Shown: positions 4,607 through 40,200 of the stretch, one piece after another
Position numbering within the stretch: position 1 is the stretch's first letter
How the letters are laid out: each line of letters opens with the position of its first letter
Source: a virus
Lineage: Duplodnaviria > Caudoviricetes
IMG/VR virus record: IMGVR_UViG_3300033273_000409
Span: 1 to 60,780 of that record
Direction: 5' to 3' (one strand)
Length of the DNA: 60,780 nucleotides
Position numbers and translations under genes: made by a program
The notes under the pieces: generated by a model
The model's database searches: none
The model's input: the letters and a program-made list of their open reading frames with translations, nothing else
What the model was told of the DNA's origin: nothing

Positions 4607-4611
4607 ATGCT

Positions 4612-4696
4612 GGGAGTGTGGCGGAATAGGTAGACGCACCAGACTTAAAATCTGTTGGGCATTGTGCCCGTGAGAGTTCAAGTCTCTCCACTCCTA
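4612..4696 (+). tRNA. trnL: tRNA-Leu(TAA)
   Basis: Acceptor GGGAGTG/CACTCCT, D-arm GGCGGAATAGGTAGACGC, anticodon arm CAGA-CTTAAAA-TCTG, long variable arm, T-loop GTTCAAGTC; no encoded CCA. Confidence 0.95.
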
Positions 4697-4698
4697 TT

Positions 4699-4772
4699 GC
4701 CACTCTAGCTCAGCTGGATAGAGCAACGGTTTTGTAAACCGTAGGTCGTCGGTTCAAGTCCGACGAGTGGCT
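4699..4772 (+). tRNA. trnT: tRNA-Thr(TGT)
   Basis: Acceptor GCCACTC/GAGTGGC, D-arm GCTCAGCTGGATAGAGC, anticodon arm ACGGT-TTTGTAA-ACCGT, T-loop GTTCAAGTC; no encoded CCA. Confidence 0.95.
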
Positions 4773-4884: not shown

Positions 4885-7800
4885 ATGTCACTCACTCGCC
4901 TAACAAACCTGATTAGTTCTACTGAAGGTCGTTTTCTCTATGTTGATCCTAGTGAGTTCAACTCGTCAGACCTTATTTCAAATAGGGGCAACTCACCAAC
5001 AAGACCCTTCAAAACTATTCAGAGAGCACTACTTGAAGTTGCAAGATTTTCTTATGTCGCTGGTCCCGACAAAGGAAACGATAAGTATGATCAATACTCA
5101 ATTCTTCTATCACCAGGGGATCACTGGATTGATAACAGACCTGGATACTTTGTAGATTGGGATAAAGACACAAACTATTGGAATACTGATCAGGAGATCA
5201 ATGGGCAAGTTATTGTTCCTAAACTGACAGATGGATCCAACTTTAATATTTTTGATGACAACAACGACCTATTCAAGTTCAACTCCACTGAAGGTGGTGT
5301 AGTCATTCCTAGAGGTACTTCCATCATTGGTAGTGACCTCCGTAAAACGAGAATTAGACCTCGTTATGTTCCTGACCCAATGTATGCGGAGTATCTAGAC
5401 TCCAACAATATAGGATATGGTACGTCTGACTATAAGCAACCTGGAGCATATGTAGAGGAAGCATACAATCAGACTTTAGGAAGAACATCGTTCTTCAGAG
5501 TTACTGGTGCTTGTTACTTCTGGCAGTTCTCTATCTTTGATGCTGTTCCAACTAACACTGGTGGTATCTACAGATATGCAACTAATGACTTTGCAGATAT
5601 TGTCAAGTTCACTAAGTATTCTGCAAACTATGAGTGGAATCTATCTCAACAACCACTCACAACTGATGCCACAACTGGTCTAGGATCACACCACAAAATT
5701 ACTGGTTTTGAGTATGCCAATGGAATGTCAGTTGCTGACATTGTTTGCACTCAAGCAGTCAATGATCCCACTGCCACTGATATCTACCTCAACAAGATCA
5801 ACAGTGGTTCGCAGGCAAGAATCTTCATGGGAGATTACCTGCTGATTGATAATTCTACTGCCTCATCGAGAGAGGTTGTTAGAGTCAAGAAGGTATATCC
5901 TGAAGAGAGCAGAATCACTGTATATAGAAACCAGTTAGGTACAACAGCCCCTGCACTTCATGAAGCAAATACTAAGATCACTAAACTGAATGATCTTGGA
6001 CTGTATTATGCAAAGGTTGCTAGAGGTTTCTCTGACGCTGATATTATTGACCCTATTACTGATGCTGAAGGTGAGATTGAAGCAAGACAGCAGGAAAATA
6101 GAATTGTTGGTCCTCTGAACGTAGACAATAGAATTGAGTCTATTGCTATCAATCTGATTCAAGGATCGAGATATAGAATTAGTGTTACTACAAGAGGATC
6201 ACATGGTCTATTCAAGAACCAGATCGTTTCTTTGAAAGACCTGGATGTAACTGAAACCTCTCAAGGTACTGGATTTGGTGGTGACATCAACGGTACAGTC
6301 TTTGTTACTAGTGTTATTAATGCTAACACAATTCAATGTGAGAAGGTTCTTTCTTCCTCTACAATCCCACAGACATATAGTTTCAATACTACAGCAGCAG
6401 CAACACTGATTGCTGATATTGATACTGTTGACTCTGCATCACCATATATCTTCAACTGTTCGATTCGTTCAGTCTTTGGTATTTGTGGCATGTTGGCTGA
6501 TGGATCTAAGGCAACTGGATTCAAGTCAATGGTTGTTGCACAGTACACGGGTGTTTCGCTCCAGAAGGATGATAGAGCGTTCGTTCGTTACATGTATCAG
6601 ATCCAGAATAGAACTGATGCTGATGGCAACCCACTGAAAGATCCCGCATGGTTGACAGAATCGCAGGTAGGATTCACTCTACCATCTGACCAAGTATCGA
6701 CTACAGTTGCTACACTACACAGTGAAGGATCTGCACTCTATCGTGATGACTGGAGAACTTTCCACGTTCATATCACAAATGAGAGTTTGATTCAGGCAGT
6801 TTCTGTCTTCGCTGTTGGATTCTGTGATCACTTCTTGATTGAAGATGGTGGTGACATTTCTATTACCAACTCTAACTCTAACTTTGGTAATACAGCTCTG
6901 AGAGCGATTGGTTTCCGTGAGAAGTCATTCCCTCAGGATAAGTTTGGTAAGATCACTCACATCATTCCACCTAAGAAGATTGATGATACTGCTATTGATG
7001 AACTGTCCTGGTATCCATTTGATGTTGCAAAGGTACAATCATCTAATACAAATGCAACCAGAACCAAACTACATCTATTCAATGCTAAGACACCAAATAA
7101 GACACCAACTTATCTGTTTGACAACAAGTATGTTTTAGGTGGTAAGCAAGATGAAGACCTAGATGTTGAGATGACTCTAGGTGCTATCACTGTTGTCAAA
7201 AACGTACAACTAGCAACCAACGTAACTGGTTCTGGTTCATTCGAACACGTACAAGAGAAAGTATTTACAGTCAACCCAAATACTGACGTTTGTACTCTGT
7301 CTGGCGGTCAAACTCACCAGTGGAGAACTGGTACACCTGTCAGAATTGAATCTGAGATGGGTTACTTACCTGATGGTATTGAACCTAACACCACATACTA
7401 TATTATCTCAGAGAATGGTGGTAGATGGACAAGTTCTGGTCAAGGATGGAATGGACCAACTGGAACTATTACAAACAGAGATAGTCAGTTCAAACTTGCT
7501 AAGACTATTGAAGAAGCAAGAGCAGGTACTGCTATCGATGTTCGTACTGATAATCCACCCAAAACTGTCAATACACAGGGTGAAATTACGGCAACTGGTG
7601 AACTGAGGGTCATCCAAAGAACCTCAGACATGAGACCAACTCCTACATCATTTGAATTCATTACTAGTACAAACTCTAACGAGTTTATTACTGTTAATGA
7701 TGCAACTGCTTTGGGACCAACAGAAATTCCTCACGGATTTGATAAGGGACAGCCTATCTTCTTCGTGAAATCTTCTGCGACAGATACAATGCCATCTCTG

Positions 7801-10800
7801 TCGAGTGGTCCTCTGATTCAGACACAATTCTACTATGCATATCCAACTAGCACATCAAGATTCAAGATCGTTGCTACATTTGACGATGCAAATAATGATA
7901 GAAACCTGATTACTTTAGGTGCTATCGCTGCTGCTGGTTCCGTCAAAGTATTTGCTAACTCTGGTCAGTGGCAAGCTGCTCCATGGATTACAAGATGCCC
8001 ACTACAGTATGATCCTCTGAATCCACTGGGTGCCTCTAATCCTGTAGACACTGAAACAGGAACTGCTGGTAACTGGATTGTAACTACTAAGACAGCAAAC
8101 AACCAGGTTATTGATGCTCTTTTGAGTGAAGGGGACTTCCAAGGAGATCAAGCACCTAAAGCAACACAACCAGCAAAACTCAAGCGTCAGAGAGACGTTA
8201 GAACTAACTATGATAGAACATATAGATTCAGATATGTTCTACCTAAAGAGTTCAAGTCTGCTCGCCCACCATTCCTTGGTTATGTTGTAAAACTAAGAAC
8301 TAATGCTGATGGATATGTACCTGAGACATGGGATGGTGGTATTCCTGGAGACTATACTCAGTATGAAAGAACATATTACATCTATGACATCACTGAGGTT
8401 CAGGACTTTATTCCTGGAGTACAAGATGGTGTCTACTATCTGACACTGCTGCTTGCAGATATTCAGGTTGATCATGACAGAATGGTTCGTGGTGATGGTG
8501 GTTCTATCTCACAAAACTGGTTCAAGAAGTTCAAGTTTAGTCAGAGCACCGCTGAACTATATCCTTCATTGGATGCTGATAATCCTGTCAGTAATGCACC
8601 AGTCGCTAAATCAGTTGCAGACCATAGAATTCAAGGTTATGTTTACTCTGATTCTAGAAGTCATTCTATCACTAGAGAGGCAGCAGCTTCTTTCCTCAAT
8701 GATAACAACTATGCCACGGTTGCAATCTCTAACATTACTGTAGAACGTGAAGGTTCAGCAAGAAGAGGTAGAGAAGACCAGTCAAGAATCTTACCTGTTG
8801 GTTATCTGAGAAGTGGTTCTTCAAATAGAACTGAAGATGAGGGTATTCAGATTGAACTTCGTAGACCATCTTTGGTTAGATCTGGTAACCATACGTTTGA
8901 ATATGTTGGTTATGGTCCTGGTAACTACTCAACTGCTTTCCCTGCTAAGCAACAACGTGAACTGACAGATCGTGAGGTTGTTGTATCACAGGCGAAGAAA
9001 GAAGATGCGGGTGTTGTATTCTATTCTGGTCTGAACTCACAGGGTGATCTATATGTTGGTAACCAGAAGATTAATGCTGTTACTGGTGCAATCGAGATTA
9101 TTGATGAGGCAATTCTAGAGGTTTCTGCTGTACCTGCGGACAACATTCCTGTTGGTGATGAAGAAGGTGCAGATTCTGGAGATGATGTATTTGATCTTGT
9201 TGTCAAAGGATCACTAACTGTTGAGAACTCTGACCAAGATTCAGCTGCTAGACAGAAAGGATCTGTTAGGGGTCCAACTAAGTTTTTAGGTGGTGTTCAG
9301 TTCAATACACCTAAGGATGCTGGAACTAAGACCCAGAAAGTTACATTCTATGGTGCAGGTAATGGTTTCTCAGTAAGAGATACTGGTGATTATCGTGGTG
9401 TTCATGACCTATTCTCTACAAACAACGTAAGTTTGAGAGCAGTTGGTGTCGAAACTTCTGGTGGTGAAATTACATTTGAAACCTATGATACTGATTTAGC
9501 ACTAAGAAAGGACACTACACTTTGGGCGCTAACTACACGTCCACCAATGCATGCTGCTGGTGCTGGTGATAACATTGAGAACATGGTAAGTTCTGCTGGT
9601 CTACTAGTAGATGTTACCTGGGCTCATGGTCAAAGTTTTGGTGATGTTGCACACAAAGCATCTGCTGCATTGAGTGCTGATGCTACATCAAACAACCAAT
9701 CTTGGATCTTCTTACCTGATCCTGCTGGTCAAACTGATGGTGTCTGGTATCAAACAGGCATGACAAAGACTGGTGGTCTATATGCTTTTGAGGATAGAGA
9801 TACACCAACTGAAGGTAGACTAGGCATCAATGGTTACTATAGAAACTCTGCACGTACCTCTAACTTCTACATCAAAGCAGGATCTACACGTCCTAATGAT
9901 TGGTTGGTAGGTATTGATAAGTCTGATGGATCTCCTGTTATGTGGATCGATCAGTCACGTTCTGGTGCTTCTGGAGCACTGACACAACCATCAGTTGCAT
10001 ACTTCCAAGACGCTCCAAGAACAAGAATTACTGAACTTGGTGGTGGTGTTTATTCATTCGATGTTGCACCTGGATATGTTTCTGCGTTTGGTGATACTGT
10101 TGTAATGTCATCTGATCTATACCTAGAAGACGATATGTTCTTCCGTGGTCAGACTAGTGGCATCTCAATTCCTAACAGTCATGTGTGCTATTCATCTTTC
10201 CAAAATGACAATGATGAGAACTATTTCTTCAGAGTTAAGGAACCAACTAACACTAATAATGTCTATAGAAACTTCAGTCTAAACAACGGTTTCTCACAAC
10301 CTGCAGGTACACTCTTCTCACCAGAAATTCGTGATGATATTATGAACCAAGCACTACCTGTTGGTGCAGTTATCATGTGGTCTGGAACTAACTCTAACAT
10401 TCCGAGTGGATATGTTCTATGTGATGGTGGTACATACAACAACAGATTTGGTACGACAACAGTTGCACCAAACATGACAGATAAGTTTGTCAAGGGTATG
10501 TTGAGTGCTAATGGAACTGGTGGTCAACATACTCAATCAAGAACTATTTCAATCTCTGCTCACGAACTATCAAGACCAGAAATTCCTGCTCACACTCACG
10601 GTTTGAACGGTCAATACTTCGAACACAAACACAACTATACTAAAGCTTATACGTCAACGGAAGGCACTGAATTGGAGCAAGAAGGTGTGCCCGATGGTAG
10701 CAGATTGTCTTTCATGACTGATGCATTGACTAGTAATCCAGACTATGGAGATGGTGAGACCCAACCTGGACCTGATTTCCACAACGATGTAGGTGGTGGT

Positions 10801-11085
10801 AGAACTAACAGAACTGGTCCTGGTTCTGGTGGTAATCACTCACTTGATGGTGGAGTTAGTGATCCTAGAAGAGGTGACAGTAGTGGTTCTGGTAACTCTC
10901 TAGGTAATTCAAGTAACGGAAGAGCATACGCACACCATCACCCAATTCAAATTACTGGTACTGGACAAGGCGATTCTGGTAGTGTTAATGCCAATGACTA
11001 TGGTACTGGTGATTCAGATAGTGCAACTCTATCATGGGATAACCAACCAGAATGGGTCAGTCTTGTATTCATTATGAAAGTTTGA
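4885..11085 (+). CDS. Large tail-fibre-like virion protein with C-terminal tail-collar domain (2066 aa)
   Basis: Cyanophage-type N-terminus MSLTRLTNLISSTEGRFLYV; GNSPTRPFKTIQRA and IIGSDLRKTRIRP motifs; C-terminal LPVGAVIMWSG..IPSGYVLCDG collar plus His-rich HxH tip motifs; late promoter upstream. Confidence 0.8.
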   Translation: MSLTRLTNLISSTEGRFLYVDPSEFNSSDLISNRGNSPTRPFKTIQRALLEVARFSYVAGPDKGNDKYDQYSILLSPGDHWIDNRPGYFVDWDKDTNYWNTDQEINGQVIVPKLTDGSNFNIFDDNNDLFKFNSTEGGVVIPRGTSIIGSDLRKTRIRPRYVPDPMYAEYLDSNNIGYGTSDYKQPGAYVEEAYNQTLGRTSFFRVTGACYFWQFSIFDAVPTNTGGIYRYATNDFADIVKFTKYSANYEWNLSQQPLTTDATTGLGSHHKITGFEYANGMSVADIVCTQAVNDPTATDIYLNKINSGSQARIFMGDYLLIDNSTASSREVVRVKKVYPEESRITVYRNQLGTTAPALHEANTKITKLNDLGLYYAKVARGFSDADIIDPITDAEGEIEARQQENRIVGPLNVDNRIESIAINLIQGSRYRISVTTRGSHGLFKNQIVSLKDLDVTETSQGTGFGGDINGTVFVTSVINANTIQCEKVLSSSTIPQTYSFNTTAAATLIADIDTVDSASPYIFNCSIRSVFGICGMLADGSKATGFKSMVVAQYTGVSLQKDDRAFVRYMYQIQNRTDADGNPLKDPAWLTESQVGFTLPSDQVSTTVATLHSEGSALYRDDWRTFHVHITNESLIQAVSVFAVGFCDHFLIEDGGDISITNSNSNFGNTALRAIGFREKSFPQDKFGKITHIIPPKKIDDTAIDELSWYPFDVAKVQSSNTNATRTKLHLFNAKTPNKTPTYLFDNKYVLGGKQDEDLDVEMTLGAITVVKNVQLATNVTGSGSFEHVQEKVFTVNPNTDVCTLSGGQTHQWRTGTPVRIESEMGYLPDGIEPNTTYYIISENGGRWTSSGQGWNGPTGTITNRDSQFKLAKTIEEARAGTAIDVRTDNPPKTVNTQGEITATGELRVIQRTSDMRPTPTSFEFITSTNSNEFITVNDATALGPTEIPHGFDKGQPIFFVKSSATDTMPSLSSGPLIQTQFYYAYPTSTSRFKIVATFDDANNDRNLITLGAIAAAGSVKVFANSGQWQAAPWITRCPLQYDPLNPLGASNPVDTETGTAGNWIVTTKTANNQVIDALLSEGDFQGDQAPKATQPAKLKRQRDVRTNYDRTYRFRYVLPKEFKSARPPFLGYVVKLRTNADGYVPETWDGGIPGDYTQYERTYYIYDITEVQDFIPGVQDGVYYLTLLLADIQVDHDRMVRGDGGSISQNWFKKFKFSQSTAELYPSLDADNPVSNAPVAKSVADHRIQGYVYSDSRSHSITREAAASFLNDNNYATVAISNITVEREGSARRGREDQSRILPVGYLRSGSSNRTEDEGIQIELRRPSLVRSGNHTFEYVGYGPGNYSTAFPAKQQRELTDREVVVSQAKKEDAGVVFYSGLNSQGDLYVGNQKINAVTGAIEIIDEAILEVSAVPADNIPVGDEEGADSGDDVFDLVVKGSLTVENSDQDSAARQKGSVRGPTKFLGGVQFNTPKDAGTKTQKVTFYGAGNGFSVRDTGDYRGVHDLFSTNNVSLRAVGVETSGGEITFETYDTDLALRKDTTLWALTTRPPMHAAGAGDNIENMVSSAGLLVDVTWAHGQSFGDVAHKASAALSADATSNNQSWIFLPDPAGQTDGVWYQTGMTKTGGLYAFEDRDTPTEGRLGINGYYRNSARTSNFYIKAGSTRPNDWLVGIDKSDGSPVMWIDQSRSGASGALTQPSVAYFQDAPRTRITELGGGVYSFDVAPGYVSAFGDTVVMSSDLYLEDDMFFRGQTSGISIPNSHVCYSSFQNDNDENYFFRVKEPTNTNNVYRNFSLNNGFSQPAGTLFSPEIRDDIMNQALPVGAVIMWSGTNSNIPSGYVLCDGGTYNNRFGTTTVAPNMTDKFVKGMLSANGTGGQHTQSRTISISAHELSRPEIPAHTHGLNGQYFEHKHNYTKAYTSTEGTELEQEGVPDGSRLSFMTDALTSNPDYGDGETQPGPDFHNDVGGGRTNRTGPGSGGNHSLDGGVSDPRRGDSSGSGNSLGNSSNGRAYAHHHPIQITGTGQGDSGSVNANDYGTGDSDSATLSWDNQPEWVSLVFIMKV

Positions 11086-21743: not shown

Positions 21744-22080
21744 AGTTCCTCCTCTCAAAACATTAGTCCAATATAAAGAACATATTGGGCACATTGCATT
21801 TTATATGCCCCCCACTCATGATTCCCTAAATTATTATGAGGGGTGTATTACTATCGCAATTCCCCCATCTTACGTCCGTATTGTCGTCCCACCCTCTGAT
21901 TATTCTCTCATTCAACCTATAACTTTCATGGATAAGACCGTCTCCCTCACTCACGCTGAAATTGATATTCTCATTCAATGCATGTATCATATGAAGGATA
22001 CTCTCAAAGACATGACTGATATTGAAGATGACAAGAAAGACATACTCGCGTCGTGTTATCAAAAGTTAGTCAATGCATGA
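21736..22080 (+). CDS. Hypothetical protein
   Basis: Coupled ORF; may be two fused small genes (second ATG ~21928). Confidence 0.55.
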   Translation: MSEVPPLKTLVQYKEHIGHIAFYMPPTHDSLNYYEGCITIAIPPSYVRIVVPPSDYSLIQPITFMDKTVSLTHAEIDILIQCMYHMKDTLKDMTDIEDDKKDILASCYQKLVNA

Positions 22081-22276
22081 AAAGTACGAAGAACTACTCA
22101 CACGGTATACAAGAGAAGGATTACCTGAACAAGATGAATTAGTTGAATTGTTTCAATACTTGTTAGACACTGATAAAATAAAAGAAATGTCTCCACGTAT
22201 GCAACAGTATGCTAATTACTTACTGATGGAAGGTTTCCTATACAACGTACACACAGGAGAGAATGAGGAGTCTTAG
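22073..22276 (+). CDS. Hypothetical protein (67 aa)
   Basis: Coupled ORF followed by a terminator. Confidence 0.7.
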   Translation: MHEKYEELLTRYTREGLPEQDELVELFQYLLDTDKIKEMSPRMQQYANYLLMEGFLYNVHTGENEES

Positions 22277-22292
22277 TTACTCCTCTTTTTTT
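22265..22292 (+). terminator. Intrinsic terminator
   Basis: GAGGAGT-7nt-ACTCCTC followed by T7. Confidence 0.8.
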
Positions 22293-22299
22293 GTATTGA

Positions 22300-22542
22300 T
22301 TACTCCGTTTTTCTTGTACCCAACCCAGTCTCTCTTGCTTTATTCAATCTCCACCAATCTTCTGCTGTCTCATGTGATTCAAAGTATTTTACTTTTCCGT
22401 GCCAGAATAAAGTAAACTTATCAAGTAATGACTCATATGATATCATTGGAGCTTCCTCTGATTCATATACAATGTCATTCTCATAGCAATCATGGATGAA
22501 TTTTTCCATATCTGCCTTTTCTTCTTCAATCCATCTGTCCAT
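22300..22542 (-). CDS. Acidic hypothetical protein (80 aa); only credible minus-strand gene
   Basis: MDRWIEEEKADMEKFIHDCYEND...; converges on terminator 22265-22292, with a minus-strand promoter at 22722-22750. Confidence 0.6.
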   Translation of the reverse strand: MDRWIEEEKADMEKFIHDCYENDIVYESEEAPMISYESLLDKFTLFWHGKVKYFESHETAEDWWRLNKARETGLGTRKTE

Positions 22543-22600
22543 AGTAGTAAGTGCGGAGAATAAAAAAATGTATAATAAAATATGTATGTGTTGTTTATAG

Positions 22601-22654
22601 TTTTCCACAAGGATGTGGAAAAAGTGTTATAAACTGGGGAAAACATGTGGAATA
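22601..22654. promoter_or_regulatory. Left DnaA-box-like cluster
   Basis: TTTTCCACA 22601-22609 (+) and TGTGGAAAA 22614-22622 (-); 1-mismatch boxes TGGGGAAAA 22635-22643 and TGTGGAATA 22646-22654. Confidence 0.6.
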
Positions 22655-22667
22655 TGATCTTTTGTAA

Positions 22668-22716
22668 TCTTATGTCTTCTTATGTCTTCTTATGCCAAAT
22701 CTTATAGTCATCTTAG
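22668..22716. repeat. AT-rich 10-bp tandem repeat (TCTTATGTCT)
   Basis: TCTTATG at 22668, 22678 and 22688, then degenerate TCTTATAG and TCTTAG. Confidence 0.85.
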
Positions 22717-22721
22717 CGTGC

Positions 22722-22750
22722 ATGTTAACACAAAACTCCGAAAATGTCAA
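22722..22750 (-). promoter_or_regulatory. Leftward sigma70 promoter (divergent)
   Basis: Minus strand TTGACA (22750-22745), N17, extended TG-T-TAACAT (22727-22722). Confidence 0.6.
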
Positions 22751-22774
22751 GACCTCAAAAATCTAGTCTAGGGG

Positions 22775-22803
22775 TTGACAAAAATCTCGACTAGGGTTAT
22801 AAT
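22775..22803 (+). promoter_or_regulatory. Perfect-consensus sigma70 promoter facing the repeat array
   Basis: TTGACA (22775-22780), N17, TATAAT (22798-22803). Confidence 0.9.
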
Positions 22804-22809
22804 AACTCT

Positions 22810-23060
22810 ACTAGATTCAACTAGATTTCATATAATCTCGACTAGATCATATATCTCTACTAGATCTCTACTAGACCCTTCTAGAATCGTCTATAACACG
22901 TCTAGAACTAGATCTCTACTAGATCTACTAGATTCTTCGTAATTCATAACTAGATGCACTAGATCATGTACACATATACGTACTAGATCATAACTAGATC
23001 ATGCGTGTATATGTGTACTAGATGAGCGAGAATGCGTGTACTAGATGTACGTGTACTAGA
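22810..23060 (+). repeat. Array of 17 co-oriented CTAGA (mostly ACTAGA[T]) repeats; non-coding
   Basis: CTAG starts at 22811, 22821, 22842, 22860, 22871, 22881, 22902, 22908, 22919, 22928, 22950, 22959, 22983, 22994, 23018, 23041 and 23056. Confidence 0.95.
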
Positions 23061-23155
23061 CGCACATACGCTCACCCCACTCACCCCTACCCACACCATT
23101 TGTGCGTGTTATGTGTTATAATGTGTGTGTATGTGTTAGGTATAGTGGGGGCACG

Positions 23156-23239
23156 TATTCCACAGATATTCTGTCTCAAGGGGGGAAAAACGATGAAATT
23201 TGTATAGTTTTCCACAAATATTTGAGAATCTGTGGAAAA
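23156..23239. promoter_or_regulatory. Right DnaA-box-like cluster
   Basis: TATTCCACA 23156-23164, TTTTCCACA 23208-23216 (+), TGTGGAAAA 23231-23239 (-). Confidence 0.6.
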
Positions 23240-23296
23240 CGTTTGTTTTGCTAATATTATTGATATCACGTGTACACTACGTGATCAAGTACTGTT

Positions 23297-23356
23297 GTGA
23301 CAGTTTCTGAACTGTCCACTAATTGCCCCATTCGTCCTCGGATGGGGTATTATAAT
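23297..23356 (+). promoter_or_regulatory. Early promoter cassette
   Basis: GTGACAGT-N6-ACTGTCCA; hairpin CCCCAT..ATGGGG; TATTAT/TATAAT. Confidence 0.75.
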
Positions 23357-23374
23357 ATCAATCGCAACCACTTC

Positions 23375-23575
23375 ATGGCAGATCGTATCATTGATCGTGA
23401 TTCTCTGCAGGAAAATTACATCGAAGCAATCATCGATGGAATGGATCACAAGTCCTTGTGGGCGTTCGTTTATGATAACCTGAACGATCATTTGGATAAG
23501 TATAGTGTCAATGAGTTGATTCAGGAAGTTGAAGAGTATTATCCTGAACTTCTTGAAGAAAGTGAGGCTAACTGA
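23375..23575 (+). CDS. Acidic hypothetical protein (66 aa)
   Basis: ATG after the promoter leader; IIDGMD..EVEEYYPELLEE. Confidence 0.75.
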   Translation: MADRIIDRDSLQENYIEAIIDGMDHKSLWAFVYDNLNDHLDKYSVNELIQEVEEYYPELLEESEAN

Positions 23576-23611
23576 ATCAGTGAGTTATTAACACTAACTG
23601 GGGCAGCTGCT

Positions 23612-23669
23612 CGACCAGTTGACAAGGTGGACTAGGGGGGGTTGATTCTCCCCCGATCCCGTGTATTGT
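23612..23669 (+). promoter_or_regulatory. Early promoter cassette
   Basis: CGACCAGT-N6-GGTGGACT; TTGATT; TATTGT 30 nt after the palindrome. Confidence 0.7.
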
Positions 23670-23697
23670 ACCTTTGTCATTCGGAACCAACACTTTT

Positions 23698-23862
23698 ATG
23701 ATGGACCAACTCGAAATGTTATCCCAACGTGAACAACTCATGTGGGATATTGATGGAATTGTTGAAGAGTTTGCCTGCAACAATAACATCAGCGAAGATG
23801 ACATGGAAGATCTAATTCGTGTCCTTTGTGATTCCGTCTGCAAAAACTTTCCTGCTAACTGA
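23698..23862 (+). CDS. Acidic hypothetical protein (54 aa)
   Basis: MMDQLEMLSQREQLMWDIDGIVEEF..LCDSVCKNFP. Confidence 0.75.
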   Translation: MMDQLEMLSQREQLMWDIDGIVEEFACNNNISEDDMEDLIRVLCDSVCKNFPAN

Positions 23863-23866
23863 AACC

Positions 23867-24070
23867 ATGCTATTCCAAGTCACACAGATTGAGTTCGACT
23901 TTGAAGATTCTGCGTCCTATGATAAGGAACCAGGATATTTTCAGAGTATTATTGATGAAACATTAGAAGGAGTTTGGGAGGCAGAGGATGGTGATGATCT
24001 CATCGAAGAGATAACATGCGCCACAGGATGGTGTGTAAAATCTATAGATTATCGTCACGTCCTTAAATGA
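23867..24070 (+). CDS. Acidic hypothetical protein, paralog B
   Basis: Clear paralog of 18684-18887. Confidence 0.8.
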   Translation: MLFQVTQIEFDFEDSASYDKEPGYFQSIIDETLEGVWEAEDGDDLIEEITCATGWCVKSIDYRHVLK

Positions 24071-24219
24071 ACATGAACACCGAACCTTGCCGCTATTGTG
24101 GTGGAAACTGTCCCCAAGATGAAGAATATGCTTGCGACGGATACTTAGGGGACATTGATGAACTCTACTCTTCTGAGGGGTCGCCCAACCAGTTGACAAG
24201 GTGGCACACAACCCCTTGA
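24067..24219 (+). CDS. Small Cys-rich protein (50 aa, not in ORF track)
   Basis: CRYCGGNCPQDEEYACDGYLGDIDELY; ATGA coupling. Confidence 0.65.
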   Translation: MNMNTEPCRYCGGNCPQDEEYACDGYLGDIDELYSSEGSPNQLTRWHTTP

Positions 24220-24478: not shown

Positions 24479-24649
24479 ATGGCACAAACATCATTCCGAA
24501 ACGGCGACTCCTACGGGATATCCGACCGCTACACTACACGCGAAGATGGGGACTGGGATGATATCATCTCCCCCGACGATTATGAAGAAATTCTTGATCG
24601 TAAACGCTTCAATCAATCAATGGGTTACAATGCATGGAGGGGAATCTGA
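24479..24649 (+). CDS. Hypothetical protein (56 aa, not in ORF track)
   Basis: MAQTSFRNGDSYGISDRYTTREDGDWDDIISPDDYEEILDRKRF...; TGATG coupling. Confidence 0.65.
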   Translation: MAQTSFRNGDSYGISDRYTTREDGDWDDIISPDDYEEILDRKRFNQSMGYNAWRGI

Positions 24650-24771
24650 TGTGGGATGAAATTCAAGACATGCCAGGCGAAATTTTTGACCTGGACATTG
24701 ATGATCGGGAATTGATGCCACCCGACATGCAAGAGGACATTGAGAAGGAAGACCCGTTGCTGGACGATTGA
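24649..24771 (+). CDS. Extremely acidic peptide (40 aa, not in ORF track)
   Basis: GGAGG RBS; MWDEIQDMPGEIFDLDIDDRELMPPDMQEDIEKEDPLLDD*. Confidence 0.7.
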   Translation: MWDEIQDMPGEIFDLDIDDRELMPPDMQEDIEKEDPLLDD

Positions 24772-24842: not shown

Positions 24843-25091
24843 ATGAACGGATTCACCAACTACGAAACCTGGAACGCTGCTCTCTGGATCGGCAACGATG
24901 AGTTTCTCTACAACACCGCTAAGGCATGCGTTGAGTTCTGCGATGTTACAGAGACCCCTTGGCAGAAGTTCGTCCGCTGCATGACTGACGGCGTGGTCGG
25001 TCGGTTCATCGGTGAGACGGGCGACGGCGTGCGTTGGGATGATCCTGCCATCGACGCTGCAGAGATGGAGGAAATGCTGTGCGATCTGTGA
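24843..25091 (+). CDS. Conserved phage hypothetical protein (82 aa)
   Basis: NGFTNYETWNAALWIGNDE..TGDGVRWDD motif. Confidence 0.8.
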   Translation: MNGFTNYETWNAALWIGNDEFLYNTAKACVEFCDVTETPWQKFVRCMTDGVVGRFIGETGDGVRWDDPAIDAAEMEEMLCDL

Positions 25092-25138
25092 TCTCTGCCC
25101 TTACCAAACCCCGATCCCCATCCTACCATCGTCGCACC

Positions 25139-25294
25139 ATGCTTAAGTTGATCGTTGCCGCTGGTCTGCTCTATCTGCTGTGGGAACCGATCAAACCCGT
25201 CCGCAGTGTGACAGCTGAGATACTGTACCAAGCGGGAGATCTGATCAAAGCAGACTCCCTTATGATTGATCACGAACCACAGCAGAGACCATGA
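25139..25294 (+). CDS. Small protein with N-terminal hydrophobic helix
   Basis: MLKLIVAAGLLYLLWEPIKPVRSVTAE. Confidence 0.6.
   Translation: MLKLIVAAGLLYLLWEPIKPVRSVTAEILYQAGDLIKADSLMIDHEPQQRP
25208..25266 (+). promoter_or_regulatory. Early promoter cassette (within CDS)
   Basis: GTGACAGC-N6-ACTGTACC, 31 nt, then TATGAT. Confidence 0.65.
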
Positions 25295-25539
25295 CCGACC
25301 TTCCGACCTTCGCCGTCCAACCCGCCGCCTGGGAGACCTTGGACACCTACGGATGCGACTGGGCGATCGACATGTCCCACGCCTATAAGATCGCAGCGAT
25401 CTGGCAGGAGATGAACGACGGCGGCGATATGATGATCTGGCGCGTGACCCCTGGCGGTGATCCGATCCGCTGGGTTCGGGTTTATGAGTATGAGTCCGTC
25501 GATGTTGTGGCAGATGACGCACTGGCACTCCTCTCTTGA
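25291..25539 (+). CDS. Hypothetical protein (82 aa)
   Basis: ATG after the promoter leader; GC-rich codons. Confidence 0.75.
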   Translation: MTDLPTFAVQPAAWETLDTYGCDWAIDMSHAYKIAAIWQEMNDGGDMMIWRVTPGGDPIRWVRVYEYESVDVVADDALALLS

Positions 25540-25564
25540 CCTGACCGCCAATCCGCTGTATCCT
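25507..25564 (+). promoter_or_regulatory. Early promoter cassette
   Basis: GTGGCAGA-N6-ACTGGCAC; TTGACC-N17-TATCCT. Confidence 0.75.
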
Positions 25565-25592
25565 TAAGAAGTCAACCGCACAACACCCGAAC

Positions 25593-25919
25593 ATGCGTAA
25601 GATCGAACGACTCATGAACGATGCCATCTCCAACGGCACCGATTGGCAGAGCGCCAACACCAGCGTGACCCATACCGATGACGTGGCACAGGTCCGACTC
25701 CATGGTAACCTGATCGCTGAGATCGGTGACAACTTCATCCGCCTGTTCGATGGTGGGTGGCAGTCCAATACCACCAAGTCCCGCCTGAATGCCATCCTGG
25801 CAGAGCATGGCGAGCAGGGTGACGGCGTTTTCCAGAAGGACTGGCAATGGTTCGTCCAGATGAACACCGCCCAAGGTCTGACCGTCGTCCCGTTCTTCTC
25901 CTCCATGCGCCTGGGGTGA
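25593..25919 (+). CDS. Conserved cyanophage-type hypothetical protein (108 aa)
   Basis: MRKIE..LHGNLIA..DGGWQSNTTKSRLNAIL motif. Confidence 0.8.
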   Translation: MRKIERLMNDAISNGTDWQSANTSVTHTDDVAQVRLHGNLIAEIGDNFIRLFDGGWQSNTTKSRLNAILAEHGEQGDGVFQKDWQWFVQMNTAQGLTVVPFFSSMRLG

Positions 25920-26018
25920 TCCCCCCCACCGAGCTCTGAGATTCTGAAGAAATGTTACTGCCCCTGGATTCTGCCGCCTGATGCTGTAGGATACGGGGGA
26001 ACCAATCAAAGGACACCT

Positions 26019-26228
26019 ATGCGTTTTCTGAACACCTGGATCGATTGGCAGAACGTCCCCAGCAGTGCCGTCGCCTCTATGCGAATCCGCCCCCGTCGTC
26101 GGTCGGTCACCATTGAATGGCGATCGGGGCACTACAGCACCCACACCGTGCGCCGCCGCGATATGATCCGCCTGCTGGATCCCCGCCAATCGGTCGGGCA
26201 GTGGGTGAATTGCTTCGCCCTGGGGTGA
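26019..26228 (+). CDS. KTSC-domain-like small basic protein
   Basis: SSAVAS..VTIEWRSG..Y..V..SVGQWVN resembles the KTSC pattern; AAGGA RBS; extended -10 TGTAGGAT upstream. Confidence 0.5.
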   Translation: MRFLNTWIDWQNVPSSAVASMRIRPRRRSVTIEWRSGHYSTHTVRRRDMIRLLDPRQSVGQWVNCFALG

Positions 26229-26231
26229 GGG

Positions 26232-26259
26232 TTGACCCCCTCCCCCGATCTGCTACAAT
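26232..26259 (+). promoter_or_regulatory. Sigma70 promoter
   Basis: TTGACC-N16-TACAAT with extended TG. Confidence 0.65.
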
Positions 26260-26286
26260 ATCCCTAACGATCCAAACCAACGGACC

Positions 26287-26784
26287 ATGACCCACACCGC
26301 ACTCATCGAATCCCTCCCCATCTATCAGAAGTGGGAGAGCAGCAAACAGTCCATCTGGGAGGGCAGCAAGTTCCAGTCCTTCCGCAACATCCCCTCCCCC
26401 AAGTCCAAAGGCGCTCAGGGTGAGCGTCTGGTTCAGCAGGTGATGGAGGCGCTCGGGCATCGTGTCGAGCGTCCTGAGAATTCTGATCATGATCGGATCA
26501 TCGACGGATGGAAGACTGAGATTAAGGTCAGCACCACCTGGAACGAAACCCTGGACAACTGGACCTGGCAGCAGATCAGGGAGCAGGATTATGATCGGAT
26601 CATCTTCGTGGGCATCAACCCCAACGACGTGAGCATCTGGTGGGCGACCAAGGAGGACCTTCGTCAGTTCGTGCTGGGTCGTGATGAGATGCGCCAGCAT
26701 GCTGGCAAGGACGGCGGTCAGGAGTTGTACTGGATTCAGGGCAGCGGCAAGCGCCCCTGGTTTCGTGATCTGGCAGACTTCTGA
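26287..26784 (+). CDS. Putative PD-(D/E)XK (restriction-like) endonuclease
   Basis: KGAQGERLV (helix E)..DHDRIIDGWKTEIKVST..QQIREQDYD; D-x(8-10)-E-I-K catalytic spacing. Confidence 0.65.
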   Translation: MTHTALIESLPIYQKWESSKQSIWEGSKFQSFRNIPSPKSKGAQGERLVQQVMEALGHRVERPENSDHDRIIDGWKTEIKVSTTWNETLDNWTWQQIREQDYDRIIFVGINPNDVSIWWATKEDLRQFVLGRDEMRQHAGKDGGQELYWIQGSGKRPWFRDLADF

Positions 26785-26793
26785 TCCTACCAC

Positions 26794-26821
26794 GGCGGGG
26801 CGGGTGCCTCGCCTTTTTTTG
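26794..26821 (+). terminator. Intrinsic terminator ending the early region
   Basis: GGCGGGGC-GGGT-GCCTCGCC followed by T7. Confidence 0.85.
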
Positions 26822-27027
26822 TAAAAACAGAAAAGGTGTTTCGACAGTGTTATTGAGAACGGTGGGGTCTTATTGCGAAAGCCCCGTATATTAATTCTAT
26901 GGGTCCCTCTAACCTACAAAACTTTGAAAACGAGCGATAAGTATTCTGTTTTCGAATTCGCAAAAGGGGAACCTAGTGATCAAAAAAATTTTCCGTGGTA
27001 TAATACATACTATAGGTCATTCAAATT

Positions 27028-34242: not shown

Positions 34243-37200
34243 ATGACCAACATTTCTCAATTAGTCGATAACCAACTACCTGAGTTTTTCGTTCAGGAAT
34301 ATCCGCTATTTGTTGATTTTTTCAAACAGTATTACAGATATACTGAAATTGATAATTCATCATCATCCATTCTGAAGAAAATTCAGACTTATCAGGGTGC
34401 AGATTTTTATAAAGATGGTATTATCCTAGAAACCATCCTTGCTTCTGACGTTAGTGCGACAGATACTCAAATCACCCTTTCTAGTGACGTAAACAAGGAT
34501 AAAGCAGTAGATAAGAATGATGTACCCATTTTTAGGAGATTTCCTAAAGAGGGATTGCTTCTCCTGAAATCAAGTAATGGTGATGAGATTGTACAATATA
34601 AGTCATACGATAAAAATACAGGTGTTTTTAGTCACCTAAAGAGAGGTGCTGCAGGTACAGTTAAATTAGGTGACCTTTTATTAGAATCTGACTCATATAC
34701 TAGTACAGATGCAGTCGCGCATAGTGCATCTGATACTACAGTAACTAATATTACTCATTTGTTCTTGGCATCTCTGTTCAAGAACCTAAAAACACAATAT
34801 TTCTCTGGTCTACCAGTAGAAAGACTAAACGAGAGTGTAAATGTACCGACTGTACTAAAATACATCAAAGATTTTTACAGATCTAAGGGTACAAGTCCTG
34901 CTGTAGAATTTTTATTCAGAAGTTCGTTCAATGACGAGAAGATTCTCGTTAGATATCCAAACGAGCAACTCATCAAAGCTTCTGAATCAACTTGGTCTAT
35001 TGATACTATTGTTCAGGGAGACTTAGTAACTCTTAAATCTGGATATACTATTGATGATCTCTCAGGATTAGTTCTAAAACAGTCAACATATGCTTATGAT
35101 CCTTCTATTATAGAAGCATCTGCATCTATTGAAAGAATTGTTGCTGTAAAGAGTGGTGACAGGCAATTATATAGAATTTTTGTCAATAGTGAAAGTACAA
35201 CAGGAACTTTCTCTCCAATAAACCAAACTCTAAGTAGAGTAAACTTTTCTTTTGGTCAAAAATCTCTAGTTGTTGATTCTACTGTAGGATTCCCAGAAAT
35301 TAATGGGATATTCTACATTGATGGAGTTGTAGATCAAAATGGAGATGCTGTTGCCTTTACATATGCAGAAAAAACTGGAACTGAGTTTTATGGTATTGAA
35401 AGTAACGCTCTAGGGTTCACTACAGCACAAAAGAATACAAGAGTTTATAGTGGAAATATTGTAAGTGTAGTAGAAGATGTTACTTCTTCTATGAATTCTG
35501 CTTTTGCTGAATTTAGACCAACAGGAGTTATTACAGACTTCAATATTGTAAATAGTGGTTTATTATTATCTGAAGGTGATAAATTTGACTTTGTTCAGTC
35601 TGGTATTGAAGGTACTACGCCAATTGAAACCTCCTGGTCACAGAATGTACCAGGAAATGAGGCAAATGTGAATTTGGTAAGTGTTTCTGGTCAGATGGAT
35701 GCAACTTATCTGCAAGGAAACTATAGAGTTACTAAGGGTGTAAACGGTGTATATGATGATGGCGATTACGTATACGTCTCTTCCAACGGATTTCCAGATG
35801 TAATTGGATCAATTGGTAATATCAATGGTGGTCCTAATGCGTTACTTAGACCAGCTTCGCAAAGACATCTGAAAAAGATTCCTAAGCAACTAAGTTTTGC
35901 ACAAACATTATATGCTCTCCCAGATGATAATACGGTTGCAGTATCTGTTGATGGTGTACCTATTATCTCCCCAACAGGAACAAATGAAATAATAACTAAT
36001 AGAGAATTGGTAACTCAAGGTGAAGTTACCAAAATCAATGTTACCAATGGGGGATCTGGTTACTCTGCAGCACCTAGGGTAACGATTAGTGGTGTTGGTG
36101 GAGCAGCAGGAACTGCAACCATCTCAAATGGTAGTGTTATTGGAATCACTATTACTTCTGCGGGTCAGGGTTATACTTATAGACCAGAAATTACTATCTC
36201 CACTGGATCTGGAGCAGTTTTACAGGCAAATTTTGGATCAAATAATAAACTAGGGGATATTCAATCTTTAGATATTGTAAACAGTGGATCTTTCTATACT
36301 CAGACACCAGATATCGAAGTTGTAGACGAATCTGGGAGGGGTAGAGGTGCTAAATTTATTGTTGAGAATATTGATCCAGTAAACGGTAATATTACATCAA
36401 TCAAGAAAGTTTCTGGTGGTTTTGACTATGATCAGTCTAAAACCAAGATTTATGTAGTATCTACTGGCACTGGAGCAACAGCAGAAGCAGAAATCAGAAG
36501 CTGGCATAGAGATAACTATGCGGCATATACACAGTTTGCTGATGATGCAAATGGATATCCTTTCCAAGGAAGATTGCCAGAATATAATGATGCATATTAT
36601 TATGTTGGTAACCCTAGAGGTTATAGAATTACTAAAAATGATAATATTACTCCTAGTGGAGTTGAATTGCCATCTGATCTCTCACACTCGCCAATTGTTG
36701 CTTGGTCTTATGATGGAGTACCAATTTACGGTCCAGTCGGATATTCAGATCCAATGGATTCCACATCTGATCTAAAGAGAGTAGAATCTTCATATTATCT
36801 GAAAGAAAATAGAGGTGTAAATGGTCCCACTGCAGTGGAATTTACTATGGGCACCTTTGTAGAGGATTATGAGTATAAACCAGAAGGAAATGCTCTACAT
36901 AAAGACTTAGATAAGCATAATGGTCGATTCTGTGTTACTCCAGATTTCCCAGAAGGTAGATATTGCTATTTCTTGACGATTCATACTAGTGATGATGTCA
37001 ATCAAAAGAATAGACAGGATGCTAGACCAAGATATCCTTATATGATTGGTCCAACATATAAGTTCAATCCCGAAGACTCTAATTTTACAACAGAATCGAT
37101 TCTATCATCTTTACCTTCTAACGCAATTAGAATTAGAGATGTAAATGATAATGTTCCTAATTTTGGAGTTAATTTAGAAGCAACTGTAACTGCAGTTTCT

Positions 37201-40200
37201 TCTGGAACTGTAGATTCTGTAATTATCGAAAATCCAGGAAACAATTACTCAATTGGAACAGATAATTATTATCCACGATTTGTTGCTGGGGATAAACTTT
37301 TTGTAGATGATACAAATACTGAGGGTGTAGGATTTTCTGGTAAGGTTGCTTCTATTATTGCAAAAAATGATTCTGGATCGGATATTGGTGTATCTTCTAT
37401 TTCATATTCATCAATTACTGGAAATTTAGACGTTAGAAAGCAAATTCTAAATATTGCTCCACCAACATTTGATGGTACAAATTTCCAGTATAATAAAATC
37501 TTTGAAAGTGATACTATTGTAGATACATCTAAGACTGTATATAATCTTGAAACTGCAATTCCATGTTCCGCTACAGATACTGTACTTAGATTTAGAGAAG
37601 CGAACACTTCCAATGTAAATATTGGAGATACTGTTGGTATTCAATCAGAAAGCATTTATATCAGTAGTGCATTCACTAATAGTGTTCAATATGCATATTT
37701 AAGTGTAGCAACTACCCAAACACAAGATCCAGTTTCACCACAGACTGACCGAGGATTCTTCTGCAAGTATGAGGGTGGTAAAGCACTGTTTGATGAAATT
37801 TATGTAGATTCTGGAGAAAATTCAACTAAAATCGGTAAAATCCTAGAAATCAATACAGTAGCAAATGTATTGAAGGTTGAGATGTATATTGATCCAGATA
37901 CACAAAATTATTATTCATTCCCAGCGTTGGGAACTGGCATTTCAAACCAAATTCAGACCGAACCTCGATATAGTCAGAATGTTAGTGCTATTGAATATGT
38001 ACAAGAAGTTACTGTTGTTAGAGGATACGATGGATCCAATGAATCCAAGCATCCTTCTGGTGTAAAATGCCCAACCCAAGTTCCTACTGCAACTATTGAC
38101 GATTATAAGGTAAGACTTCAATTTACTGGTGCTGATCCATCTTTATTTGTTCCTGGAGTTTACATTAAGGGTCAAAACTCAGATACTACCGCACGTATTG
38201 AACTGGTAGAAACCATTTCTGCAACTTCAGGATATTTGTATCTAACTGATGTAAAAGAAGGACCAAATGCTGCTGATGTTCCTAGATTTGGTATTTACAA
38301 TAATGGATCATTCAATCCAGAAACTATCAATGAAATTGGTGCTGGTGTATCAACAACACTTACAGAATCTGTTGATGGGGATGACACAGTACTAAAAGTT
38401 GTCAATAGCGATCTTTTCTATGTCAATCGTTATGTCAACGTTGGTTCCGAACTAATGAGAATCACTGACAAACAACCAGGTCAGTTGACAGTTGCTAGAG
38501 CACAGGGTGGTACTCCTGCAGATGACCATTCAGTAAATGCCACTGTAAGTATTGCAAACCATACTGCTACAACAGCAGGTGATACATATCAACTCACAGT
38601 TTCTTTGGAAAACGCACAAAGATTCTCTAATACTAGCACATTCAATGATAACAATGGTGATAGCATTGCGATCGATACTGTTGCTGATGGTAAATTATTA
38701 GGAGAGGAGAATACTTTAACTATTGATGCTCAAAATTATGACAGGTTCGCTCTCGGTGATATAATCAAGATTGGAACGGAGCAAATTAGAATTGATAGTA
38801 AGAGAACTAATCTTCTAAGAGTTACAAGAGGATTCAATCAAACTACTGCAATCAATCACAACCATAATCTCTCTGTAGAAAATGTTAGTAAGTACGATGC
38901 ACTCGTAACTACAAATACTCCTCATGATTTGATTGATAGTGATCTCATAGAAATTACTGGAGATCCTTCATTAGAGACAGTTCAAGAGACTGGTATTGCT
39001 GTTAGAATTTCAAACGGTCAGTTTGAATTCAATAGTGTTCATACTAATGGAAATTATCAGCAAAATCCGTCATTGACTTTAGTTTATGGTCATAAGTATG
39101 TTTTTGATGTCTCAGATTCATCTAATACAAATACTACTCTTGGATTGTATTCTGATAAAGACTTCAATAATGAAATTTCTGTAGAAAGAATTGGTGTCCC
39201 TGGTTCATTGAACTCTAAAGTTATTTTGAAGAATACCAATAGAGACAATACTAATATTTACTACAATAATCCCAATGCTCTTATTTCTAGCCTAACAAGT
39301 AGACTTACATTTATTGATGATCCATATAATGTTTCTTTGACTGGGGTATTTGATCTGACCACCACAACATTCAAGTATCTTGTCAGATCTAGACCAGAAG
39401 GGAATGCTAGAGGAACTAAGACACTTGCACTGCAAAGTCATAGGTATTCTGGCAAGATTAATAGAATTTCTATTACAGATAGTGGTGATGGATATCAGTC
39501 ACTGCCAGTTATCAAGGGTATCTATTTTAGAGAAGAGGATGCATTCAGAGGCACCGTTATTACTGATGATGATGGTACAATTCAAAGAGTAGATATTGAT
39601 TTTGGTGGAACAAGATATATTTCACCAAAAGTATATGTCATTGGTAATGGAAGTGGCGCATCAATGACTGCTGATGTTCTTGACAATAGTGTCAGACGAA
39701 TCACCATTAATAATGGTGGTTTTGGGTATGATAAAGACACTCAATTAGTCTTAGTTGAAGAAGATGCTAGAACAGCAAGAATTCTTCCTCAAACTAAAAC
39801 CATTGGTAAGATTTCAGCATTCAGTATCAAGAATCCTGGACTTGATCTGACAAGTAACTATACGATGGCACCTCAGGTCAGAATTCCGACCACTATCCAA
39901 GTTACTAACATCAATGGTGAATATAGGAAGGGTGAGACTGCATATCAAGGAAACGTAAATAATCCATCAGGAAAGGGTATTGTTGAAAGTTTTGATACTA
40001 AGATCAATGTTCTAAAACTTGTCGGCGTCACAGGTCGCTTTGTTGATGGAGAAACTGTTGTTGGATATACGTCTTCAGCAACTAGTAATGCAAATAAAGT
40101 AAACCTGTCTAAGGTTTCTGCAACTGTAGGTGCTCTAACTACAGTTGAAGGCGTATTTACCGATGAATTCGGTAAAATGAATACTGCATCTCAAAAGATT

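Follow-up and report, generated by a model that had tools for sequence, protein, structure and literature searches.

The array locus and its promoters

The window analyzed here is a viral fragment of 60,780 bases (IMG/VR record IMGVR_UViG_3300033273_000409; completeness estimate 32%), and the element in question is an array of short CTAGA repeats located directly downstream of a strong promoter in an intergenic region of 830 bp. The window is a fragment of a T4-like cyanomyovirus, and the T4-like proteins it encodes are a UvsW-type helicase, gp6, gp8, a gp5 OB domain, and structural proteins of giant size. Among public records, Synechococcus phage S-BM3 (Kyanoviridae) is the closest, with 75.7% identity across 42% of positions 22300–23600. 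The array is located in an island of small open reading frames (ORFs), flanked by the UvsW helicase on one side and the gp25/gp6 baseplate genes on the other, and an equivalent island is present in other cyanomyoviruses. Coordinates are collected in Table 1. Related loci are cited by labels between L026 and L306, further records that were scanned by G001–G005, and library runs by X1 and X4 (DNA) and X19 and X20 (RNA).

The initial annotation of this locus had described 17 CTAGA units on the same strand, and our recount agrees (starts 22811–23056), with 15 of them reading ACTAGA and the other two TCTAGA (22880 and 22901). Such a density, 17 units in 250 nt, far exceeds the background rate (Poisson P ~5e-26), and no other 7-mer of the window is as clustered as ACTAGAT, 14 of whose 16 copies fall in 22761–23046 (13 on the plus strand, one on the minus strand). 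Many of the spacings were also said to be roughly helical multiples. This is true locally, since 13 of the 16 gaps between neighbors are 9–11 or 21–24 nt, and 8 of 16 are within 1 nt of multiples of 10.5, a set defined a priori for which 3.4 would be expected (p = 0.01). However, a long-range phase is not significant (p = 0.23 for periods of 10–11.5; p = 0.59 for any period of 5–16), and the output of Tandem Repeats Finder (TRF) for the array was limited to a degenerate period of 11 nt, at 61% matches and 22% indels, and a duplication of 48 nt.

The sole ORF spanning the array, at 22775–22942, has a TTG start within the −35 box and is frameshifted by indels in a 92%-identical relative (L168); therefore, the earlier statement that the array contains no credible ORF holds. 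The same comparison indicates that array units turn over, with one unit replaced, one lost, and one 22-nt duplication gained between the window and L168. The C-rich block that follows the array is unchanged in L168, L156, and L157 and has one substitution in the distant L122, and in every case it is found on the same strand and at the distal end of the array. L168 also contains an inverted imperfect copy of this block (5 substitutions) about 80 nt downstream.

The promoter leading into the array, P_R, had been annotated as a perfect sigma70 promoter, and its two hexamers indeed match the consensus at 12 of 12 positions across a 17-nt spacer, TTGACA-N17-TATAAT. No second perfect sigma70 consensus is present in the 60,780 bases, whichever strand is read. 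The +1 predicted for P_R coincides with the first ACTAGA, at its A, in the lineage of the window and in that of S-BM3. P_R is conserved in relatives, among which S-BM3, L156, L157, and L169 keep the perfect form with +1 on ACTAGA. Near-perfect sigma70 promoters are ordinary in hyperplastic regions of T4-like phages (PMC4122927).

A transcript initiated at P_R would probably end at the terminator-like hairpin in front of the next gene (Table 1). A hairpin is found in the same place in S-BM3, with a different stem sequence and a predicted energy of −17.3 kcal/mol. Contigs from two RNA libraries of different studies cover the region, at 22715–23056 and 23158–23400 in X19 and at 22825–22975 and 23038–23185 in X20. 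Within 21800–24200, X20 has no contig outside 22825–23185, and X19 covers the flanking genes at lower depth; uncovered parts were not used as evidence. The start of one X19 contig precedes the predicted +1 by 95 nt, and contigs of this kind give no strand, ends or level, while RNA libraries can hold DNA. Transcription of the array region is plausible based on these observations, and a non-coding transcript of about 540 nt from P_R, as suggested by the initial annotation, is supported by the conservation of the promoter, by the RNA-library contigs on 22715–23400, and by the hairpin preceding the next gene. The corresponding 551-nt stretch folds better than shuffled sequences (z = −4.46), to which palindromic elements noted in its 3′ part may contribute.

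It had further been proposed that this transcript is a sponge or decoy RNA, in which the ACUAGA(U) copies would soak up an RNA-binding protein or an endoribonuclease. The layout of the locus is consistent with this proposal in several respects: the perfect promoter leads straight into the array, all 17 units have one orientation, no conserved ORF precedes the hairpin in the window lineage, and contigs of both RNA libraries lie on the array, an arrangement of many motif copies in a non-coding transcript that resembles CsrB/RsmZ-like RNAs. However, motif bases are not preferentially unpaired in the predicted ensemble (mean P(unpaired) of 0.33, vs. 0.46 for linkers), Rfam gave no match on 22000–24000 at E up to 1, and TRF found none of the exact tandem units of tens of nt that would be expected of a ToxI-like RNA. 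The RNA-library contig that starts upstream of the predicted +1 and the properties of such contigs mentioned above also count against this proposal.

Table 1. Features of the array locus and its two flanking genes, in window coordinates.
Feature	Position	Strand	Description
P0001	22300–22542	−	80 aa, acidic, basic C-terminal tail; ATG at 22542; predicted to be transcribed from P_L
AT-rich stretch	22543–22600		58 bp, 24% GC; adjoins left boxes
Left DnaA-type boxes	22601–22654		Exact TTTTCCACA at 22601 (+) and 22614 (−); one-mismatch boxes at 22635 (−) and 22646 (−)
10-bp-period repeat	22668–22694		2.7 copies (TRF)
P_L	22710–22750	−	TTGACA-N17-TAACAT; −35 at 22750–22745, −10 at 22727–22722, +1 at ~22715; 10/12 with TG
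P_R	22761–22816	+	−35 at 22775–22780, −10 at 22798–22803, +1 at ~22810; three bracketing dyads
CTAGA array	22810–23061	+	17 units; left part degenerate dyads ATCTC(G/T)-A-CTAGAT, right part half-sites only
C-rich block	23073–23097	+	25 nt; zone 23063–23100 has 21 C and 1 G, followed by G/T-rich zone 23101–23150
Right DnaA-type boxes	23156–23239		One-mismatch box at 23156 (+); exact at 23208 (+) and 23231 (−)
Terminator-like hairpin	23324–23358	+	Stem 23324–23349, −18.1 kcal/mol, U/A-rich tail; likely 3′ end of P_R transcript
P0002	23375–23575	+	66 aa, DUF7326/phrog_1352; conserved right-hand neighbor

Form of the repeat unit in related phages, and flanking elements

Several features were recognized in addition to those of the initial annotation: the unit is a dyad, a leftward promoter diverges from P_R, TTTTCCACA boxes flank the array with an AT-rich stretch beside them, and a terminator-like hairpin lies before P0002. 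Comparison with relatives indicates that the repeat motif is kept, but in the form of a double-strand dyad rather than of a one-strand RNA motif: aligned across loci, the ACTAGA(T) unit is the half-site of a 13-bp dyad, ATCT(A/C)G-N-C(T/G)AGAT. Counted over 21 non-redundant array loci, 31 pairs of a left and a right half-site have an offset of exactly 7 nt and 22 have one of 2 nt, with most other offsets occurring 0–2 times, and two such spikes represent the fixed spacing that a repressor operator set would show. Perfect 13-mers were found in S-BM3, L072, L122, and L087. The arrays of S-BM3, L156, L157, and L169 are rearranged relative to that of the window and contain perfect palindromes ATCTAG-N-CTAGAT, and more distant contigs have the variant ATCTCG-N-CGAGAT.

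The dyads are also placed at conserved positions on P_R. In the window, three of them (22761–22773, 22784–22796, and 22804–22816) are centered at about −43, −20, and +1, as they are in L168, and the corresponding centers in S-BM3, L156, and L169 are near −42, −22, and +1. The core promoter is thus overlapped by dyads in both lineages, as in an operator set, though the arrays beyond it are rearranged.

Among 57 related loci of at least 3 kb each, 25 have at least 8 half-sites in 400 bp and 32 have at most 3, with none between, and array status follows phylogeny; five more distant phage genomes are without clusters. Within a genome, dyads with at most one mismatch are restricted to the early island. 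For example, all 7 sites of a 174.7-kb record belong to 3 clusters inside one 6.4-kb stretch, and the cluster counts in other records are 2, 3, 1, and 1. The window, S-BM3, G002, and G003 have one array locus, and G001, G004, and G005 have 2–3 clusters. In the 169-kb genome of S-BM3 the five best dyad sites are all at 6486–6649, the syntenic spot. A scan of viral contigs for triple ACTAGAT retrieved at least 119 loci, mostly unrelated, with a P0002 homologue in only 5 among the matches listed. On the host side, 251 cyanobacterial genomes, among which marine Synechococcus is unconfirmed, contain 0–7 dyads each, compared to 0–9 for a reversed control; the dyad is thus not enriched, and no host regulon is visible.

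The orientation of half-sites relative to gene direction is informative with respect to the level, DNA or RNA, at which the motif is kept. The ratio of right-only to left-only half-sites is 12:2 in the window, 4:15 in L166, and 7:17 in L181 (159:213 in total), and the transcribed strand therefore presents CTAGAT-type half-sites in the window and ATCTCG-type half-sites in L166 and L181, where the promoters are on the same strand. One family of DNA half-sites accounts for this flip, and one RNA motif does not. In 13 of the 21 loci, a promoter matching at least 11 of 12 positions would transcribe most sites of the cluster, a point in favor of a sponge RNA; other clusters are located upstream of a promoter or have no promoter within 200 bp (e.g., L104), which speaks against it.

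A conserved Asp/Tyr-rich ORF of 46–62 amino acids overlaps the arrays in 17 of the 25 array loci and in none of the 32 others (e.g., L182 2657–2797, L072 275–421, and L166 1401–1583, plus 14 further loci). The dyad half-sites themselves code for the Asp-Leu-Asp(-Glu) repeats of this ORF, which is absent from the window lineage.

All four exact copies of TTTTCCACA in the window fall within the intergenic region of the array, with three one-mismatch boxes alongside (Table 1). This sequence is given as the species-specific DnaA box of cyanobacteria (PMC4674748). The right boxes are invariant between the window and L168, while the 14-nt spacer between them diverges, and the zone of the 10-bp repeat is length-polymorphic in nature, with small deletions at 22655–22700 in DNA metagenome contigs (X1/X4). 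The box module recurs in S-BM3, S-SM2, S-CAM1, S-8S29, S-RIM32, and viral contigs. Several genera of Kyanoviridae have exact boxes at this early control region, arranged either directly, with a period of 12 or 21 bp, or in inverted orientation (L130 7916–7945; L129 5266–5286; L132 6482–6742; L306 5666–5700 and 6718–6739; L142), and the share of the exact boxes of a whole genome found at this region is 2/3 in S-SM2 and 3/5 in S-8S29, with none in Bellamy. Scanning genome contigs for triple DnaA boxes matched many phyla, with no marine Synechococcus among the matches listed.

The leftward promoter P_L has relatives of its own. A 22-nt pattern at its transcript start is common to 20 viral contigs, S-BM3, and S-SM2 (window 22543–22731, minus strand; L130 7780–8010; loci L134–L153). 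In S-SM2-like phages the P_L transcript would run for about 180 nt up to a bidirectional terminator without an ORF, and for this reason it is a candidate conserved small RNA. The leader contains a lineage-specific repeated motif of 8–11 bp, of which the DnaA-type box is the commonest (11/20).

Homologues of P0001, the gene to the left of the array, are syntenic in S-BM3, L156, L157, and L169. The protein has no Pfam, PHROG or ESM Atlas assignment (nothing in the Atlas above 0.79), and a search for related loci with P0001 as query retrieved none. Close relatives in DNA metagenome contigs (X1, X4) lack 23 nt at 22291. Farther away, the window contains a patch of 55–57% guanine plus cytosine (GC) at 24900–26900, compared to about 40% for the genome, inside which a phrog_6927 gene annotated as “restriction endonuclease” (26287–26784) is shared only with the S-BM3-like lineage. 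Genes for tRNA-Leu(TAA) and tRNA-Thr(TGT) are side by side at 4611–4772, and three giant ORFs are found among the baseplate genes, at 4885–11085 (2066 amino acids, for which Pfam gave nothing), 34243–46269 (4008 amino acids), and 48024–56711 (2895 amino acids).

A proposed operator array and alternative readings

The motif as observed is a dyad that sits on the promoter, is conserved and confined to the early island, and is covered by RNA-library contigs; we hypothesize that the array is an operator set for a probably phage-encoded DNA-binding protein that controls immediate-early transcription. We assign this reading a probability of about 0.45, i.e., slightly less than even odds. Protein binding, repression, and the phage origin of the binder are what we infer from the sequence data. 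In this model, host sigma70-type RNA polymerase would fire P_R and the divergent P_L upon phage entry, and a sequence-specific, probably dimeric protein would read the 13-bp dyad on double-stranded DNA. As it accumulates, this protein would fill the promoter dyads and the downstream half-site array, occluding P_R and acting as a roadblock to elongation, and by these two effects early transcription of the island would be timed or shut off. In addition, an array of this size may buffer the concentration of free binder.

The operator reading is favored by the dyad form, the overlap with the promoter, an occurrence that is lineage-restricted but widespread, a regulon-like distribution, the signal at the DNA level, and the lack of a visible host regulon. 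The retention of the motif despite the turnover of units between the window and L168 is also counted in its favor.

Several observations weigh against it. No DNA-binding domain was found by Pfam and PHROG in 10 neighboring ORFs, no cognate protein for the dyad was recognized among neighbors or array-tracking families, and the protein families that track the arrays are acidic. The best tracker is an acidic peptide of 41–51 amino acids, present in 21 of 25 array loci vs. 2 of 32 others and represented in the window by a very acidic 45-amino-acid ORF (24634–24771) with a conserved N-terminal motif. We dropped it as a candidate binder, because the array and no-array labels follow kinship; moreover, it is 92% identical in S-RIM32, where no array is present in the 14 kb examined. 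The same kinship means that counts over array loci are not independent events. Further, a simple dimer does not account for half-sites in a single orientation, of which L104 is composed throughout and the window array in its right half, and a role linked to the transcript is possible given the 13 of 21 loci in which most sites would be transcribed from a promoter matching at least 11 of 12 positions.

Alternative to operators, the locus might be a replication origin, in which the transcript of an early promoter crosses an iteron-like array that has host DnaA boxes and an AT-rich stretch at its flanks. Such an origin would act like that of iteron plasmids or P1, or like T4 oriE, with the promoter dyads as autoregulatory operator, and the array, boxes, AT-rich stretch, and divergent early promoters would then constitute the first defined origin of a T4-like cyanophage, plasmid-style and transcription-activated. 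We consider this unlikely, though it is the best placed of the alternatives, and the same doubt applies to the claim of a first defined origin. At the level of sequence, DnaA boxes and an AT-rich region do lie beside the repeats, as they do in iteron origins: four exact and three one-mismatch boxes flank the array, with no exact box elsewhere in the window, and a 58-bp stretch of 24% GC adjoins the left ones. P_L and P_R are divergent, the window and S-BM3 each have a single array locus, and inverted repeats on the promoter followed by direct repeats resemble the operator-plus-iteron logic of iteron plasmids. There is also an analogy with T4 oriE, which depends on an early promoter and contains iteron-like repeats, T4 origins being located near points of transcriptional divergence (PMC3016281). 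However, oriE lies inside gene 5 in the T4 record, and we therefore rejected synteny with it; the architecture differs.

Other observations do not fit an origin. Relatives have 1–3 clusters inside about 6 kb, the units are 7–13 bp long with irregular gaps of 6–24 nt rather than regular iterons of 17–22 bp, and Pfam and PHROG revealed no initiator gene, i.e., no Rep-like domain, in the 10 neighboring ORFs. Boxes and arrays are separable, since the array contigs L072, L122, L104, L087, and L026 are without boxes in the parts examined, and among the 20 contigs with the P_L leader, 11 have boxes and none has an array. In other lineages, different repeated motifs are found at the position of the boxes, which would not be predicted if the universal host DnaA were the partner. 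With respect to an R-loop, P_R is present and the array is 36% GC, but it is followed by the conserved C-rich block on the RNA-like strand (21 C, 1 G), and purine-poor RNA disfavors stable R-loops. The earlier inference of DNA iterons combined with an R-loop origin is retained in its first half, as protein-binding DNA repeats fit the data, while its origin half has the boxes and AT-rich stretch in its favor and the 1–3 clusters and C-rich transcript against it.

A DNA decoy is improbable. According to this idea, the array titrates a host DNA-binding protein, either a regulator or a defense sensor, and phage replication multiplies the sites. There are far more sites than promoter control requires, the runs in the window and L104 consist of half-sites only, and no phage binder was found among neighbors or array-tracking families. 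However, no obvious host regulon is indicated by the 251 cyanobacterial genomes, with the same proviso regarding marine Synechococcus membership, and the half-site variant changes between ATCTAG and ATCTCG across phage lineages, suggesting a partner that co-varies with the phage.

About equally improbable is that the array has no dedicated binder at all, and is a shuffling or recombination cassette of the PeSL type or a neutral repeat expansion in a hyperplastic region. The locus is within a small-ORF island, its units turn over through duplication and loss, and indels are present nearby in DNA metagenome contigs. Near-perfect sigma70 promoters with stem-loops also mark T4-like hyperplastic regions (PMC4122927). 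This reading does not explain why lineages with otherwise unalignable arrays keep one dyad with a spacer of exactly 1 nt, nor the conserved placement of dyads on the core promoter.

Least probable of all is the sponge RNA of the initial annotation, which is not supported in view of the conserved DNA dyad, the flips in orientation by which the CUAGAU-type motif of the window transcript is replaced in L166 and L181 by the AUCUCG type, the clusters upstream of or without a promoter, the motif bases being less unpaired than linkers, and the lack of ToxI-like units. CsrA is not known to occur in cyanobacteria.

Significance and comparison with known systems

Operator or iteron clusters at early promoters of phages are a known kind of element; the motif itself we did not find in print. 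Searches of the open literature on cyanophage origins, early-promoter motifs, transcription start sites and non-coding RNA, and the dyad strings yielded nothing on the array and no DnaA boxes in cyanophages, any supplementary tables of promoters and start sites being outside their scope; papers containing the dyad strings concern unrelated subjects, judging by title and opening of the abstract. T4-like cyanophages are not known to have the MotA/AsiA switch of T4, and the locus bears on how they time early transcription and on where their replication begins. A conserved dyad set on the strongest early promoter of the island points to a sequence-specific regulator, and a 13-bp bait could retrieve it. 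Exact TTTTCCACA boxes recur at one control region across several genera of Kyanoviridae, so that a connection between the replication state of the host and early events of the phage becomes testable, with S-BM3 and Synechococcus WH7803 as one cultured pair. In the doubtful case that the locus is an origin, a lytic myovirus would recruit or titrate host DnaA, and the promoter dyads would couple early transcription to initiation.

Among known systems, lambda OR/OL and the P22 Arc/Mnt operators are similar in having short dyads about two helical turns apart over the −35, spacer, and start of a strong early promoter, with a divergent promoter adjoining. Unlike in these phages, 14 further sites extend 250 bp into the transcript here, many of them half-sites in one orientation, and the window phage is lytic and T4-like, without a known repressor. 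The origins P1 oriR, RK2 oriV, and F ori2 likewise combine a direct-repeat array flanked by DnaA-type boxes with an AT-rich stretch and inverted copies on a promoter. However, their units are 17–22 bp long at intervals of about 22 bp, compared to 7–13 bp and irregular gaps here, and the present locus has no recognized Rep gene, several clusters in relatives, and boxes and arrays that occur apart. The CsrB/RsmZ sponge RNAs and ToxI-like RNAs share with the predicted P_R transcript a non-coding character and many copies of one short motif, but here the motif is not preferentially unpaired, its orientation relative to transcription is not conserved, and exact tandem units of the 36-nt type are absent.

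T4 oriE lies inside gene 5 in antisense and has evenly spaced 12-nt repeats (PMC3016281 and the T4 record). The window array, in contrast, is intergenic, about 19 kb downstream of gene 5, and irregular. PeSL cassettes (PMC4122927) are similar in that a near-perfect TTGACA-N17-TATAAT of a hyperplastic region is followed by a stem-loop ahead of the next small gene, but they are compact units of promoter and hairpin repeated many times, whereas here it is the dyad that is repeated, and 540 nt of array, C-rich block, and boxes separate promoter and hairpin.

Plasmid centromere arrays differ from the present locus in that no partition ATPase or ribbon-helix-helix gene is recognized here and in that the phage is lytic. 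In their layout, however, R1 parC, pB171 parC1/2, and the pSM19035 omega sites are similar to the window array, with 10–18 short repeats of 6–11 bp, direct and inverted, arranged around a promoter and cooperatively bound by a small repressor.

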